From: Thermoanaerobaculia bacterium
GTDB lineage: Bacteria > Acidobacteriota > Thermoanaerobaculia > Multivoradales > Multivoraceae
NCBI GenBank assembly: GCA_963664405.1
Contig: OY761158.1
Coordinates: 4,032,001 to 4,096,000 of the forward strand
Direction of reading: 5' to 3'
Length of the DNA stretch: 64,000 nucleotides
A program made the position numbers and the translations under genes. Below are positions 7,793 through 14,266 of this stretch, one piece after another. The notes under the pieces were generated by a model that worked only from the letters and a program-made list of their open reading frames with translations, did no database searches and had not been told where the DNA came from. Each line of letters opens with the position of its first letter. The stretch's first letter is position 1.

Positions 7793-8449
7793 AGAAGGGG
7801 CGGAGGCGAGAGAGATATGGGGGACAAAGTGACAGCTGATAGTAGATCGGCTTGTTTTTTCGAAGGCGTTCATTGGCGGACGCTGACCTTTGTGTGCCTG
7901 CTAGCGTCGATGCTGCCATGGGCGGCATTCGCCGGTGACAGCTCGCTGTCTAGGATCCCAATAGCGACGCCTGAGGACCCCTTTGTCGCCCCCCTCCCAG
8001 CGGGGAATCGGGCAACTCGGCTCGAAGGGGTGGAGGTCGTGGACCGAGGTTCGGAAACTTTGGTACGGATCGTCGGTAACGGCGAGTTCGCGTACTCCAG
8101 TTTTCAGCTGGAGGACCCGCCGCGATTTGTAGTTGACCTCGAGGGCGCTCAAAAGACCAGCGGCGACTCGAATCTCCTGGTCGCCTCGGCGACGGTGGAA
8201 CGGGTGCGACTGGCTCAGTTCCGATCGGCTCCCGAGCCGGACTCACGAGTCGTCTTCGACCTTCATGAGTCGGCCCAACCCTGGGTGGCTCGAGACGCAG
8301 ACGGTCTGCTGGTGCTCTTCGCGGCCGGCAGTCCGGAGATTAGCGACGGCGGGCCGGCAGCATTGGAGCTTCCTTTGGACCTGCCAGAGCCGGTTGAGCT
8401 TCCTTTGGAGGCCACCGGGGAAGTGGCGATCGATCCGGAACCCTCGAGG

Positions 8450-8928
8450 TTGAGAGTGAGCACGATAATCGATGGGAATGTTGGCCATTCTGAGCACGGT
8501 AGGTGAGGGAAGGGTGTTTGGTCCCTCAAGTAGTGTGCTCAAGACTAGGTCCGTCGGCATCATCCCCGCCGAAGGCGGGCCGTCGGGGCCTGACGCGCAG
8601 TCCATACTTGTTCTTTCGCTGATCACGCTGAACGAGGGCTGACACGCAGCGATGGGATGAACGGCACGCTATCTGATGGGCGATCGAGGCGGTTCGCCGA
8701 GCTTCCATCGCGCTTGGGCCCCTGGTTGCGCCCTCAGATACCTTGAACGGAACACCCATTCCCACCAGACAACGTGATCGGGTTTCCTCGAATCGCCATC
8801 AAATACTGTGAACAAGACCGTCTGAGGCAAGTGGCAGCGAAACGCAGCTTCGGCTAAGTCCTTCAAAAGGCTACGCGACCATCACTTATCGTGATCGGAC
8901 CGCCATCGATTATCGTGCTCACTCTCAA
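8450..8928. mobile_element. Non-autonomous 479-bp MITE-like element inside pilQ
   Basis: Perfect 26-bp terminal inverted repeat TTGAGAGTGAGCACGATAATCGATGG; GG on both flanks; no recognisable ORF; removing 481 bp restores the pilQ frame. Confidence 0.9.
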
Positions 8929-9590
8929 GGGTCACAGAAGCGGAACCCGCCAGGGTTGCCAAAGACCGGGCCATCGAGGAGCCGGATGGGAATCTCTCGC
9001 CTATCCTGCCGGTGGTATCCGCTGAGCCCGACCTCGATGAGATGGTGGTGGCTCGACTGGAAGCGCCGCCCATCGTCGTAGCCGGCCCGGGGCTTATCAC
9101 TTTGCCTGAGGGCGCTGTTGTATTGCCGCAGCCGGTCGCAGCTAGAACCGAGCCGATGCGCCAGGAGGCTGTCTTTGTGAGCACGGCTGTAGTAGAGCGA
9201 GAGACTGAGCCGGCTGCACAGCCTGTCCCTGCCTTCGAAGACCGTACCGAAACGCTCCTTGCTTCGATCGGTGCCGGTACCGAGGCGGAGCAAGAGCTCC
9301 CTGACGAAGCCCCTGCCCTAGCGCCACCGCAACCGTCGCCACAGCCGCAACCGTCGGCACAGCCAGAGCCGGTGCTTGCTATCGCGGAGTTCGCACAGGC
9401 GCCTGAAGTCGAAGCCCCGGTCGCAGAGACGGCCGTGGTGCCAGAGTTTCAGGCTCCTGCTCCGGAGCCGGTGACCATCACTCAAGCCGGGCTTGGCGGT
9501 GTGCCGTTCATCGCGGTTGCGCAGCAAGAGTCCGTCGCGCCGAGCATCGAGGCGGCTGAAGAGGGTAGTGGCGGTGCCGGTTGTTACCGG

Positions 9591-9947
9591 CTACGAGAAA
9601 GCGCACTTAGTTGGCTGCGAGTCGGTTTTTTGTCCCCGCGAGGCGTGACTCAGGGTGTGGCGCAGATAGTCGAGGTACCCCTCGGGGGGTGGCGTCGTGG
9701 GGAGTTCTCGGAGGATGGGGAGAAAGTAGGCGAGGGATCGGATGGGCTGGAGCTTTGGTAGGCGCGGATCTCGGCATGCGCGTCGGGCGGAGCCGAGGAG
9801 GAGGGCGGCCTGGAGGACGGTGAGAGGCAGGTCTTGGTCGAAGAGCTGGTCGACGATGACGCGGTCGCCGTGGTGGAAGCGGTGCGGGGTGTCGGGAAGG
9901 AGTCGATAGAGGCGGAGGAGCTGGCGCCGATAGTGGCTTCGGGTCAT
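9591..9947 (-). CDS. Hypothetical 118-aa protein within the IS, downstream of istB
   Basis: ATG overlaps the istB TGA (ATGA coupling); fills the space up to the terminal IR. Confidence 0.7.
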   Translation of the reverse strand: MTRSHYRRQLLRLYRLLPDTPHRFHHGDRVIVDQLFDQDLPLTVLQAALLLGSARRACRDPRLPKLQPIRSLAYFLPILRELPTTPPPEGYLDYLRHTLSHASRGQKTDSQPTKCAFS

Positions 9948-10738
9948 GAGCGTCGTCGTGCTGCGCTCCGCCTTTTGGCGCGGTCCTTGGCCTTTTTTTC
10001 AGCAGCCTCCTTGGCCTCCTTGCGGCGATAGGAGTTAGCCTCGATCTTGACGATCTCGGCGTGGTGGGTGAGTCGATCGACGAGAGTGACGACGCAGGAG
10101 GCGTTGGGAAAGACCTCGGCCCATTCGGCGAAGGGCTTGTTGGTGGTGAGAAGAATGGGCTTGTTGCCGTATCTCCTGGAGACGACCTCGAAGAGGAGAT
10201 CCGCGTGGCGGTGGTCGTAGGAGAGATAGCCGAGCTCATCGATTGCCAAAAGCGAGGGTCGGGTGTATTTGGAGAGCCTTCTCTGGAGCGCCGAGGGGGT
10301 TTCCTGGACGGCGAGATCGTTGAGCATGTCGGAGGCGGTGACGAAGCTGGCGGTGGCCCCTCGTTGCAGCGCCTGGTAGAGGAGGTTCTTGGCAATCATG
10401 GTCTTGCCGACACCGTTGGGTCCGAGGAGGATGACGTTGGTGATGTCGTCGAGGAATTGGAGGGTGAGCAGATCCTGGATCTGCTCGCGGTCGATGCGCT
10501 GGGGCCAGGAGAAGTCGAAGTCGGCGATGCTCTTGAAGAGCCCGACGCGGCTGGTGCGGATGCGCCGTTCGAGGCTGCGCCGTTTGCGCTCGGCCTCTTC
10601 TTTGCGCAGCAGCTGTTCGAGCCAGGGCTGTTCTCGGTAGGTGCCCCAGTCGTCGACGAGGGCGTAGAAGCCGAGGGATCGGGCGAGCTCTCGTAGTGGT
10701 TCGTCAGGGATCGTTGGACTCTTCCTGGGTCGGGCCAT
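9944..10738 (-). CDS. istB: IS21 helper AAA+ ATPase IstB
   Basis: DFDFSWP, Walker A GPNGVGKT, Walker B LLAIDELGY, LVDRLTHH, SYRRKE; GGAGG upstream of the ATG. Confidence 0.95.
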   Translation of the reverse strand: MARPRKSPTIPDEPLRELARSLGFYALVDDWGTYREQPWLEQLLRKEEAERKRRSLERRIRTSRVGLFKSIADFDFSWPQRIDREQIQDLLTLQFLDDITNVILLGPNGVGKTMIAKNLLYQALQRGATASFVTASDMLNDLAVQETPSALQRRLSKYTRPSLLAIDELGYLSYDHRHADLLFEVVSRRYGNKPILLTTNKPFAEWAEVFPNASCVVTLVDRLTHHAEIVKIEANSYRRKEAKEAAEKKAKDRAKRRSAARRRS

Positions 10739-12212
10739 CGTCGTTGCCTCCAAGTTGGTCGTAGTCCTCGAGGTTGTGCGGTCTCACGGAGAGATCTCGC
10801 TGTTGGAGCTCCTGGCTGAGCGGCACCGGTAAAGCCGGGGGCTGACCGAGGCCGCGCTGGTGCCGTTCGAGTAGGAGCCGGACGGACTGGAATCGCGGTG
10901 CGTGGTTCAGGAGCGCTTCGCGCACGGCTTTGTCGAGTCGCTGGGGGCCGTACTGGCGCAGGAGTCGGAGCAGGCCGGCGGTCTGCGTTCCGAGGTTCTC
11001 GCCTCGCTCGGCGAGCTGCTGCATCAGCTCTTCGCATCGAGGCACAGCGGAAAACAGCCGATGGAAGCCCCGGTGTCGTCGGGCCCTGCGTTTGTGAGCG
11101 AGGAGCTCCTCGAGGTGTTGAGGATCGAGGATCTGCTCGCCCCGGGAGTACGAGCGAGGGTGCTCGGCGAGGAGCTCCTGGCCATCGAGGATCCGCACCC
11201 GATGCTCGCTGGCGAGGAGCGTGACGGTCCTCTGCACATGACTGTGCGGCACCGAGTAGTCGTTGAGGTCGAAGCGCACGATCGGCGTCTTTCTGACCTT
11301 GATCTCCAGTCGCAGGTCGGTTTCGAAGTCGTCTCCGGGAAGCTCAAGCAGTCGAGGTCGTTCCTGGGCCAGGGCGCTTTTCACGGTTCGCTGTCGGTCC
11401 TGCGGCCAGGGTCTGCGCTGCGACCTCTGGCACCATTCCAGGACCTGCCGATTCAGACGATCCAAATCGCTCACCGTTCGGGCGCCGAAGAACGAGCTTC
11501 GCAGGAAGCGGATTGCGCGCTCGACGCGGCCTTTCTCATTTCCCCGAGCCACCGCGGCGACGGTGGGAAGGAAGCCGTAGTGGCTGGCGAAATCGAGCAG
11601 CACGGGATGGAAGCGCACCGCGGTTCCCTGCCGCTCGATCACCGCGGTTCGCAGGTTGTCGTACAGAACGGTCCTGACGACGCCGTCGACGTAGTGGAAG
11701 GCCAGCTGGTGAGCGTGCAAGAAGGTTTCGAGACGAGTGTCGAGGGTGAAGTGCACGAAGACCGTGCGCGAGAACGACAGCACGAAGACGAAGGCATAGA
11801 GCCGACGATGTGCCCGGCCGACGCGGAGCCGACCGAAGTGGCCCCAGTCGACCTGCGCCTGCTCTCCTGGCAGCATGCGCAGCGAGAGAAACGCCTCGCG
11901 CTGGGGCTTCGGTCGCATCGAGGCCACCAGGTGGCGAAACTGATCCGGGCCTCCTGGATAGCCGCGCTCCACCACCATGGTGTAGAGACGGCTCGCCGGC
12001 AGTCGTGGGTAGGTCCCGAGCACCTGCTCGATGAACGGCAGGTAAGGATCGATCATCCTCCCTCGTCGCTGCTGGGGTAGCACGCCGGACTTCTCCAGCG
12101 CCCGGCGCACGGTTGAGGGGTGCAGCTGTAGCTGTCGAGCGATCGTGCCGACTTTCCACTTCTCGACCAGGAACAGACGACGGATCTCCCCGCGCAGCTG
12201 TGCGTCGATCAC
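10704..12212 (-). CDS. istA: IS21 DDE transposase IstA
   Basis: N-terminal HTH (IARQLQLHPSTVRRAL), PGEQAQVDWG, YDNLRTAV, KGRVER, NDYSVP. Confidence 0.95.
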   Translation of the reverse strand: MIDAQLRGEIRRLFLVEKWKVGTIARQLQLHPSTVRRALEKSGVLPQQRRGRMIDPYLPFIEQVLGTYPRLPASRLYTMVVERGYPGGPDQFRHLVASMRPKPQREAFLSLRMLPGEQAQVDWGHFGRLRVGRAHRRLYAFVFVLSFSRTVFVHFTLDTRLETFLHAHQLAFHYVDGVVRTVLYDNLRTAVIERQGTAVRFHPVLLDFASHYGFLPTVAAVARGNEKGRVERAIRFLRSSFFGARTVSDLDRLNRQVLEWCQRSQRRPWPQDRQRTVKSALAQERPRLLELPGDDFETDLRLEIKVRKTPIVRFDLNDYSVPHSHVQRTVTLLASEHRVRILDGQELLAEHPRSYSRGEQILDPQHLEELLAHKRRARRHRGFHRLFSAVPRCEELMQQLAERGENLGTQTAGLLRLLRQYGPQRLDKAVREALLNHAPRFQSVRLLLERHQRGLGQPPALPVPLSQELQQRDLSVRPHNLEDYDQLGGNDDGPTQEESNDP

Positions 12213-12216
12213 GCCC

Positions 12217-12612
12217 CTATCTCCGTCGGCAACGACGAAAGCTCGTTCGCACAAACTCTCGGCAGGCCTCTCCACACTGCATGCATCGCGGATTCCTCGG
12301 GTCGTAGCGCACTTCGCGCCTCGGAGTCTCGATCCGACACAGTGTCCTCCCCGAAGTACCGCCTGGGGTACCCTGATGCGTCACTTTCTCTGCCCGCTCG
12401 CGCTGGCGCCGACGGTAGCGGGCCTGACGGGCGGCATGACAATGCCGACCTCGGAGGCTTCGCTGGTACCGATGGCCGGCCGCCCGAGTCGATTCCCGAC
12501 GAGCCACCAGAGCACAAGCCCGGCAGTAACGCTGGCCACGGTCACAGTGCGAGCACAGCGAGATACGCCGACGGCATCGAGCACAGTCGAAGAGTCGGTA
12601 GTCCGGTCGCAT
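12217..12612 (-). CDS. Cys-rich, basic, zinc-finger-like 131-aa protein within the IS, upstream of istA
   Basis: CARC, CSHC, CRAC and CMQC pairs; Arg-rich helix; GGAGG RBS; stop 4 nt before the istA start. Confidence 0.75.
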   Translation of the reverse strand: MRPDYRLFDCARCRRRISLCSHCDRGQRYCRACALVARRESTRAAGHRYQRSLRGRHCHAARQARYRRRQRERAEKVTHQGTPGGTSGRTLCRIETPRREVRYDPRNPRCMQCGEACREFVRTSFRRCRRR

Positions 12613-14266
12613 CGTCGCCTCCCATTCGACGACGACCCCGACTCTCTGCCATACTGCAAGCGCAGCTAATGCTGCGGTTTGGGGCAGAGCCCGGGGCGTT
12701 TTCTACTTCGCTTTCCCGGGCTCTCGCCGTCTCTGGTCGGCCTGCTCTATCAGAGCAGAGCCCGCACTGCAAAGCCCTACACCGACTCACGCATCTCTTC
12801 CGACCGCAAACACGCCGCCGGGACCACGCACCCGGACCGCCGTTCCGGCGGGATGATGCCGCCCTTCCTGAAGAAGGCCTAGCTTTCCCGCGGTCGCGAA
12901 GCCCTCAGCTCACTCCATCCCGGAAACTGCGCTCGCAGCCAACGGGATGCGCTTTCTCGCAGCCATCAACACCGGTGGCGTGCCCGGTTTCGGCGTCACT
13001 AATGTGAGCGGTCAGAAGCAGTATTTCGGCGACCCCATCAGCATGAGTCTGAAGGACGCCGACATCACGGAGGTTCTCCGCTCGATCGCTCGGATCAGCG
13101 CTCTCAACATCGTTATTCAGCCAGGAGTGTCGGGCCCTGTCACTGTCGAGCTCGACAGCGTTCCATGGGATCAAGCACTTGAGCAGATCCTCAAGATCAA
13201 TCAGCTTGGAATGGAGCTCGATGGCAACATCTTGCGCATCGCGCCTGTAGCCCGGCTGGCGCAGGAGGCTGTAGAACAGCAGAGGTTGATAGCCGCGAAG
13301 GCACTTTCGATACCGCTGACAACGGTGATGCGCCGAATCAGCTACGCGACCGCCGCCGAGCTCGCCTCGATACTCCAATCGGGTGGAGGTGGCGGAGGCG
13401 GAATCCTGAGCCAGCGTGGAAGTGTGATCGTCGATGCACGCACCAACACTCTGATTATTCAGGAGCTGCCTGGCTACATGGATCAGGTGATCCAGATCAT
13501 CGAGAACCTGGATATCCCCGAGGACCAGGTGATGATCGAGGCCCGCATCGTCGAGACCACCAAGAACTGGAACCGCTCCCTGGGTTTCAATTGGAGCTAC
13601 GACTTTATTGCTGATGCCCAACACGGCAACACGACCGGCCTCGAGTTCCCCAACAACATCGATACAGATGGCGGCGTATCGCTTCTGACCGGCGGCGCGA
13701 ACGGGTTCTTGAACATCGGCCTAGGGAACGTGCTCAACACCTTCGAGCTCGACGTCATCCTTCAGGCCGCTGAGTCGGAGGGCCTGGTCAACGTGATTTC
13801 GGCTCCGAAGGTGGCAACCCTCAACAACGAACGGGCGACGATCCAAAGTGGTTTGCAGATCCCGGTTCAGACGGTCGCGAACAACACCGTAACGGTTCAG
13901 TTCGTCAACGCCACTCTGCGCCTGGACGTGACGCCGCACATTACGGCAGAGGGGACTGTTCTGCTCGAGATCAACATTCAAAAGAGAGAACCGCTGCTCG
14001 TATTCGCCGTGGTGGGTGCGACTAACGCACCGATCGCCACACGAGAAGCGCGAACCCGGGTTCTCGTAAGAGACGGAGGCACTGCAGTGATTGGAGGCAT
14101 CTACCAAGTGAGCACCGACGAGAGTGAAGATAGGGTGCCAGGGCTCTCCAACATTCCGATCTTGGGACATCTGTTTAGGAACAAGAGCCGCGCCAACACC
14201 AACGAGGAGTTGATCATATTCATTACCCCCAGGATCATTCAGCTCTAGTTGGTAGGAAGGAAGGAC

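Follow-up and report, generated by a model that had tools for sequence, protein, structure and literature searches.

Insertion sequences of the IS21 family are about 2-2.6 kb long and carry two genes (ISfinder range). At positions 9582-12971 of the stretch analysed here, 64,000 nucleotides (nt) of a Thermoanaerobaculia bacterium genome (contig OY761158.1, positions 4,032,001 to 4,096,000; hereafter the window), an IS21-like element encloses four genes. Its transposase gene, istA, and helper ATPase gene, istB, are preceded by a gene for a small cysteine-rich protein (Zn) and followed by a gene for a protein of 118 amino acids (aa; O118). Do these two additional genes belong to the transposon and, if so, what might they do for it? 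On the evidence of gene neighbourhoods and transposase phylogeny, the element belongs to a distinct, widespread IS21 subgroup with a fixed Zn gene and an exchangeable fourth gene. The features of the element, in their order along the gene strand, are as follows.

9582..12971, minus strand: whole element, 3,390 bp, delimited by inverted repeats and by exact copies at three other sites with their own duplications
12972..12976, unstranded: target-site duplication CCGGT on the Zn-proximal side, read directly from the sequence
12932..12971, minus strand: left terminal inverted repeat, which starts TGTTGATGG on the gene strand
12613..12931, minus strand: leader, 319 nt from the repeat to the Zn start, with no long conserved open reading frame (ORF)
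12217..12612, minus strand: Zn gene, 131 aa, isoelectric point (pI) 11.5, four conserved CxxC pairs
10704..12212, minus strand: istA transposase gene, 502 aa from the GTG at 12212, with the frame open to 12275
9944..10738, minus strand: istB gene for the helper AAA+ ATPase, 264 aa from the ATG at 10738 (ORF frame 9944..10753)
9591..9947, minus strand: O118 gene, 118 aa, containing PDTP, AALLLGSARR and PIRSLAYFLP, with five predicted helices and a flexible tail
9582..9621, plus strand: right terminal inverted repeat, which reads TGTTACCGG... inward
9577..9581, unstranded: target-site duplication CCGGT on the O118-proximal side, read directly from the sequence

The 40-nt terminal repeats are imperfect (80% complementary) and form the longest inverted pair in 9300-13300. 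Both element ends begin with TGTT, and the left repeat contains the sub-repeat CTCGCAGCCA twice at a spacing of 24 bp. The order is leader, Zn, istA, istB and O118, with all four genes co-oriented. The Zn stop codon TAG (12219-12217) lies 4 nt ahead of the istA GTG, istA and istB share 35 nt where the former ends and the latter begins, and the O118 ATG (9947-9945) overlaps the istB TGA (9946-9944) as ATGA. The GC content of O118 by codon position (0.71/0.46/0.78) resembles that of istA and istB. An earlier note, made from the sequence alone, had described this arrangement: inverted repeats and a CCGGT duplication enclosing two extra co-oriented genes, one for a 131-aa protein with four CxxC pairs that ends 4 nt before istA and the other for a 118-aa protein, with the peptides listed above, that is joined to istB by ATGA. 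All of this was seen in the sequence, and the roughly 350 bp of non-coding DNA that it placed ahead of the genes correspond to the 319-nt leader, or to 359 nt once the repeat is included. For the 'Arg-rich helix' that it assigned to Zn, the basic composition held (38 R+K in 131 residues, pI 11.5) and the helix is putative.

In profile searches, IstA matched NF033546 at 244.8 bits (cut-off 160) and the Pfam families rve and Mu-transpos_C_2, with weak Pfam matches to helix-turn-helix (HTH) domains at its N-terminus. IstB matched NF038214 at 210.6 bits (cut-off 200) and PF01695 (IstB_IS21) at 211 bits. The element has the hallmarks of IS21, i.e. an IstA-type DDE transposase, IstB right after istA, multipartite repeats with sub-sites and a short duplication, but departs from the family in its 3,390 bp and four genes, instead of about 2-2.6 kb and two genes. 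Judged by these features and by its copies, 9582-12971 is a real, recently active IS21-family insertion sequence.

The copies came from a scan of reference genomes, in which the same 3,390 bp recurred letter for letter at three more places on one contig of an Acidobacteriota metagenome-assembled genome (MAG). The flanks of these copies differ and each has its own duplication (CAGAAG, CTCTG and CCCCG, compared with ACCGG on the gene strand in the window). Because identical sequence recurs at three other sites with its own duplications, the element boundaries are real and not due to chance, and the four-gene unit therefore moves as a whole. A 'Candidatus Multivoradales' genome holds six copies of a related 3,306-bp Zn-IstA-IstB-O118 element, and a separate 5-bp duplication flanks each of them. 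The 3,390-bp and 3,306-bp copies with their own duplications therefore place both extra genes inside a recently active mobile unit. Related elements were 3,306 and about 3,503 bp long, and in 12 insertions of related elements the duplication measured 5 bp in 11 cases and 6 bp in one. No sequence consensus emerged from the 12 insertion sites. Two copies on one Mesorhizobium plasmid (L019 and L023, NZ_CP159951.1) had swapped flanks (TACGG/CCAGG versus CCAGG/TACGG), a pattern that recombination between copies, or a composite unit, would produce. A Hydrogenophaga plasmid of 72,339 bp, compared with 72,341 bp for the Mesorhizobium plasmid, carries the same copies.

Zn is closely linked to istA beyond this genome. 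A word-indexed protein search returned 232 Zn relatives at E <= 0.001. In the reference genomes, 364 stretches matched the pattern derived from Zn; 344 of these encode a Zn relative, and the best 80 of the 344 were examined. Where at least 600 nt followed Zn, IstA was adjacent on the same strand at 71 of the 75 loci. In three of the exceptions (L065, L074 and L075), Zn is directly followed by other large ORFs, which look like unrelated transposases, and the fourth (L072) has only 939 nt downstream and no adjacent IstA. Measured from the Zn stop, the codon aligned to the IstA start lay at -26 to +75 nt at all 71 loci, with a mode of -14 (40 loci), and the offsets occupy all three frames. In one relative (L028:1970-3289), Zn and the N-terminal part of IstA share one open frame, with istA split further on, and in seven others (L008, L029, L044, L048, L069, L076 and L080) Zn and IstA are in the same frame with a single stop codon between them. 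Pairwise distances between Zn proteins correlated with those between IstA proteins across 38 distinct elements (Spearman 0.72, Mantel p 0.001; IstA versus IstB, 0.90), and by this measure Zn co-diverges with IstA.

In alignments of 29 and of 94 relatives, the four CxxC pairs of the Zn protein (C10/13, C20/23, C30/33 and C110/113) proved invariant or almost invariant, and H79 and the motif CDRG..YC are likewise (near-)invariant among Zn relatives. No family in Pfam, NCBIfam or PHROGs matched Zn, and weak Pfam matches to Rhodanese_C (31/94 members) and NinG (7/94) arise mostly because of cysteine spacing. Profile searches of the PDB with Zn and O118 gave nothing useful (best E 0.5 and 0.068), and searches of a protein atlas with the two proteins returned unnamed clusters only. 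Among 18 plasmid Zn matches (H1-H18), 14 had no annotated feature or lay in an unannotated record and four were labelled 'hypothetical protein'; the 14 ORFs lacking annotation imply that gene callers often miss Zn.

The transposases of these elements also stand apart. A maximum-likelihood tree of 52 distinct IstA proteins, with only two outgroup sequences and with long branches flagged, split the 50 of this architecture from two other IS21 transposases with support of 99/95. On plasmids, IstA identity steps from 45-54% (32 records) to <= 34%, with at least 4,960 further records. Nine plasmid loci were inspected. Zn is present at L081-L083, which were first found via the Zn search, and three of four in-clade plasmid loci found via IstA have an unannotated Zn ORF; at L087 the left end is overlain by another gene. 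No Zn ORF was found in a Klebsiella element (L089). The subgroup includes elements from Acidobacteriota, Planctomycetota, Myxococcota, Verrucomicrobiota and many Pseudomonadota. On a Caballeronia plasmid (L088:638-1508), an element with 34% IstA identity has two different ORFs ahead of istA. The first encodes a cysteine-rich protein of 166 aa whose match to the Zn profile is borderline (hhalign E 1.8e-4, probability 48%); within IS21, accessory zinc proteins may therefore have an earlier origin and a broader distribution. The second encodes 132 aa with no family, and was rejected as an O118 relative (hhalign probability 0.2%).

The fourth gene behaves differently. IstB is present, with 220 nt or more of sequence beyond its gene, at 52 loci: O118 follows istB in 10, a gene that we call S70 follows in 40, and neither is present in two (L076 and L080). 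The 10 O118 loci reduce to three distinct elements: one in an Acidobacteriota MAG, one in a Planctomycetota MAG and one in 'Multivoradales'. At 10/10 O118 loci and at 30 of the 33 S70 loci evaluated, the start codon of the fourth gene shares bases with the istB stop, as ATGA or GTGA. A distant homology between O118 and S70 was considered and rejected (hhalign probability 0.2%). From these comparisons, the fourth gene is a slot and not one family. Bootstrap trees of IstA place the S70 elements (mostly from Pseudomonadota) to one side of a branch in 86% of cases, although the branch is weak (63/4), and the O118 elements form a basal grade with Myxococcota elements. The earlier note had proposed that the extra proteins define a distinct subgroup: this stands for Zn, given its 71/75 loci and the 99/95 IstA split, but not for the 118-aa gene, which occupies 10/52 loci. 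The note had also asked whether homologues of the two ORFs consistently sit beside istA and istB, which they do for Zn (71/75 loci), and whether the ORFs are conserved, and both are conserved families (232 Zn matches and 1,592 O118 cluster representatives).

A profile search of 1.84 billion representatives recovered the O118 family: 1,592 proteins reached E <= 0.001, and tighter limits of 1e-10 and 1e-30 left 879 and 53, respectively. O118 (pI 10.2) matches no family in Pfam, NCBIfam or PHROGs, and a search of plasmids with O118 and one fused form gave nothing useful. An AlphaFold2 model built from 110 sequences had a predicted local distance difference test score (pLDDT) of 92 and a predicted template-modelling score (pTM) of 0.81, with helices at 3-15, 26-37, 42-57, 72-81 and 91-108 and a less ordered tail. 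The near-invariant residues R55, R56, R59, L66, R70, S71, L72, Y74, F75 and P77 fall at the end of helix 3, in the long loop and in helix 4. Foldseek found no match to the model at E <= 0.001 in the PDB (best E 0.97, template-modelling score 0.19) or in BFVD (best E 0.17). Below threshold, 10 of 110 O118 members resembled PF22448 (RepB_primase_C) and nine RecX_HTH2; the best member reached 19.7 bits against PF22448 (cut-off 26.1), and the window O118 had no match to it. Among the tails of 178 O118 proteins, 22 end in QKxTF..DDR and nine are K.DVSS-like. The pattern QLx[LFM]..[WFL], which we take to be clamp-binding-like (a QL[SD]LF-like peptide), occurs within the last 16 residues in 8/178, compared with 0.8 expected from shuffled tails, and elsewhere in five more.

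S70 is a different kind of protein, of about 64-75 aa and acidic (pI 4.1-5.2), with a core of W[TS]PEQA.AV.ELLDDLR, and is a 'hypothetical protein' in RefSeq. Examples from proteobacterial relatives are as follows.

L019:7663-7893, L081:7148-7360, L082:7254-7445, L083:7190-7405 and 36 further loci: S70 genes

The C-terminus of S70 is PF in 31 of 36 distinct proteins, and in 28 of those 31 at least two acidic residues stand just before it (e.g. DQDLPF, NDEIPF and DDDMPF).

Zn and O118 also occur joined. In the fused relatives, one polypeptide of 246-283 aa carries an N-terminal Zn domain and a C-terminal O118 domain. One of them, P0165, aligned to Zn with 44% identity over 105 columns (E 2e-14) and to O118 with 42% identity over 109 columns (E 1e-20). 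The fusions form at least nine clusters (eight full-length ones in the P0165 search, plus P0206). An O118-like gene was also seen in a different transposon (L001:8068-10393), 37 bp beyond one element copy. This transposon encodes an rve transposase of 422 aa, under every NCBIfam cut-off and nearest to IS481, and an AAA_22 ATPase of 281 aa. Its O118-like ORF (profile E 2.4e-16) is cut by the locus end, and the sole candidate start, GTG 10171, overlaps the AAA_22 ATPase stop (10176-78). A further protein of 878 aa, P0282, has two O118-type repeats at its C-terminus, and its N-terminal 750 residues had no match in Pfam, NCBIfam, PHROG or PDB.

What, then, might the additional proteins do? The earlier note took them for dedicated transposition factors (a regulator, target selector or replication-fork adaptor), which is plausible. 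We propose, with a probability of roughly 0.4, that Zn and O118 form a DNA-binding adaptor for target capture or for a link to the replisome. The two would be accessory proteins dedicated to the element, acting as one functional unit with IstA and IstB. Zn, which is very basic and has two or more putative zinc sites, would be the nucleic-acid-binding part, and O118, with its compact five-helix domain, conserved basic loop and flexible tail, would engage the helper AAA+ ATPase, host replication proteins or both. The pair would bias or license where and when IstB-bound target DNA is captured or, alternatively, recruit host replication and repair to finish insertion. Such a role would parallel those of TniQ, TnsD and TnsE in Tn7-like elements. 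In the proteobacterial branch, S70 would fill the same slot, and its tail, which resembles the tip of SSB, the protein that binds single-stranded DNA, points to the same host machinery. The Zn-O118 single polypeptides in some relatives suggest that Zn and O118 work as a unit. Also consistent with an adaptor are the linkage of the genes, the coupling to istB, the mobility of the unit, the overlap with the ATPase gene in L001, the co-divergence of Zn and IstA, the protein tails and the weak similarities to PF22448 and RecX_HTH2. A broader version is more doubtful, namely that Zn with O118 or S70 might be the first accessory target-capture or replisome-adaptor module of IS21, with a fold that has no solved relative and a role like that of TniQ or TnsE without sequence relationship, and that the O118 domain might be a general partner of transposon AAA+ ATPases.

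Several observations weigh against an adaptor role. The absence of a consensus at the 12 insertion sites makes a TnsD-like sequence-specific selector unlikely. The O118 model matched no TniQ, TnsD, TnsE or RepB structure in the PDB at E <= 0.001, and neither Zn nor O118 matched the Pfam TniQ family even at E <= 1. The sub-threshold Pfam similarities could be chance matches. The tail of the window O118 (…SQPTKCAFS) has no clamp-like motif and is nearest to the K.DVSS type. The fourth gene may be dispensable, since L076 and L080 are apparently without one, and the genomic context of the 1,592 O118 relatives comes from four distinct loci only.

A second explanation, which we consider possible but somewhat less probable than an adaptor, is that the extra proteins regulate copy number or expression: Zn would bind the terminal repeats, leader DNA or mRNA and repress, and O118 or S70 would modulate this. 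Small upstream DNA-binding proteins repress expression or inhibit transposition in other IS families (IS1 InsA and IS3-family OrfA), and Zn is small, basic (pI 11.5), cysteine-rich and first in the operon. The acidic S70 (pI 4.1-5.2) could neutralise a basic partner, and the lack of an insertion-site consensus would be expected if targeting is unsteered. The 319-nt leader ahead of Zn folds, as RNA, more stably than 100/100 shuffles (z -3.1; window 12600-12931, minus strand). However, the leader had no match in Rfam, no sigma-70-like promoter site was found in it, and beyond the terminal repeat it is not conserved among three related elements; a conserved leader element was rejected on these three results. 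In addition, with so variable a distance from Zn to istA, a programmed frameshift of the IS1 or IS3 type seems improbable, and regulation would leave unexplained both the coupling of O118 to AAA+ ATPase genes in two unrelated transposons and the SSB-tip-like tails.

Rather unlikely, in our view, are cofactors of transpososome assembly that have no effect on target choice or host factors, with Zn helping IstA to recognise or pair the multipartite ends and O118 loading IstB or modulating its ATPase cycle. The pairing of Zn with istA and of O118 with istB, one extra gene to each core gene, suggests matched stoichiometry; Zn co-diverges with IstA, and Zn-O118 fusions would parallel the IstA-IstB contact in the transpososome. 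However, canonical IS21 needs only IstA and IstB, according to the available text of PMC11208146, and the replacement of the fourth gene by an unrelated protein (hhalign 0.2%), or its absence in L076 and L080, would be odd for a core factor. Least probable are passenger genes for counter-defence, addiction or host benefit that merely ride in the element, because, even though the proteins have no known family, function or fold and the fourth slot is exchangeable, passengers are rarely conserved across at least five phyla in a fixed, overlapping position inside a transposase operon, and in the 80 loci examined Zn was away from istA only where another gene had inserted or the contig ended.

The element in the window is inserted in a PilQ-like secretin gene region (7817-9581 and 12977-14248), in which the following parts were recognised.

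12977-14248: STN, N0, Secretin_N and Secretin domains
7817-8506: ORF with an AMIN domain

With the element and one copy of the duplication taken out, the frame of 9012-9581 resumes in phase at 12977. Roughly 500 nt separate the end of the AMIN ORF (8506) from 9012, and the secretin gene may therefore be broken a second time.

IS21 has served as a structural model for transposases controlled by an AAA+ ATPase and is described as a two-protein system. A large branch with two more coupled genes suggests an extra layer of control or targeting, which the Zn-O118 fusions and the SSB-tip-like tails of S70 make directly testable, and two unannotated families gain a context (at least 232 Zn clusters and 1,592 O118 cluster representatives). 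Full-text literature searches, which did not extend to the specialist IS catalogues, turned up no account of IS21 elements with extra genes. In the available portions of the papers concerned, IS21 encodes two proteins (PMC11208146, PMC4608216), nothing relevant appears on extra IS21 genes (PMC12486865), and IS21 is not reported with a target selector (PMC10293859).

Compared with canonical IS21 elements (IS21, IS5376), the element shares the IstA DDE transposase, the IstB AAA+ helper, the istA-istB overlap, multipartite TG repeats and a short duplication, but it has 3,390 bp and four genes, and the bulk of the IS21 transposases on plasmids share <= 34% identity with its IstA. IS66-type elements carry small accessory genes in the transposase operon, the role of which is obscure; small accessory genes in one operon with the transposase gene are common to both, whereas the transposase and accessory proteins are unrelated. 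One of the loci examined, L083, has an annotated IS66 TnpB accessory protein. IS1 InsA and IS3 OrfA resemble Zn as short basic proteins encoded upstream of, and overlapping, the transposase gene, with zinc binding in IS1. In contrast, the offset between Zn and istA in the elements described here shows no consistent frameshift geometry, their IstA has its own HTH, and a second accessory gene stands behind the ATPase gene.

For S70, though not for the window O118, the comparison is with SSB, whose C-terminal hexapeptide DDDIPF docks many replication and repair proteins according to the accessible part of PMC5872125. In both, the C-terminus is [LIMP]-P-F behind an acidic stretch (31/36 S70 proteins), but S70 has no oligonucleotide/oligosaccharide-binding (OB) fold and no similarity to SSB.

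The proteins TniQ, TnsD and TnsE of Tn7-like and Tn5053-like elements are likewise encoded by a small accessory gene directly after the gene for an AAA+ regulator, an analogy of position only: O118 follows istB at 10/10 loci, and the O118-like ORF follows the AAA_22 ATPase gene in L001. As described in the part of PMC10293859 that is available, the TniQ core consists of a helical domain, a zinc finger and a helical domain, i.e. the ingredients that Zn and O118 would provide between them. TniQ was not among the 24 Pfam families matched by 110 O118 members, nor among the first 25 of 39 for 94 Zn members. Unlike TniQ and TnsD, the fused Zn-O118 forms run from zinc finger to helical domain, and the 12 insertions have no attachment-site-like consensus. 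TnsE links to the replication clamp, and a TnsE-like connection of Zn, O118 or S70 to replication proteins is possible.

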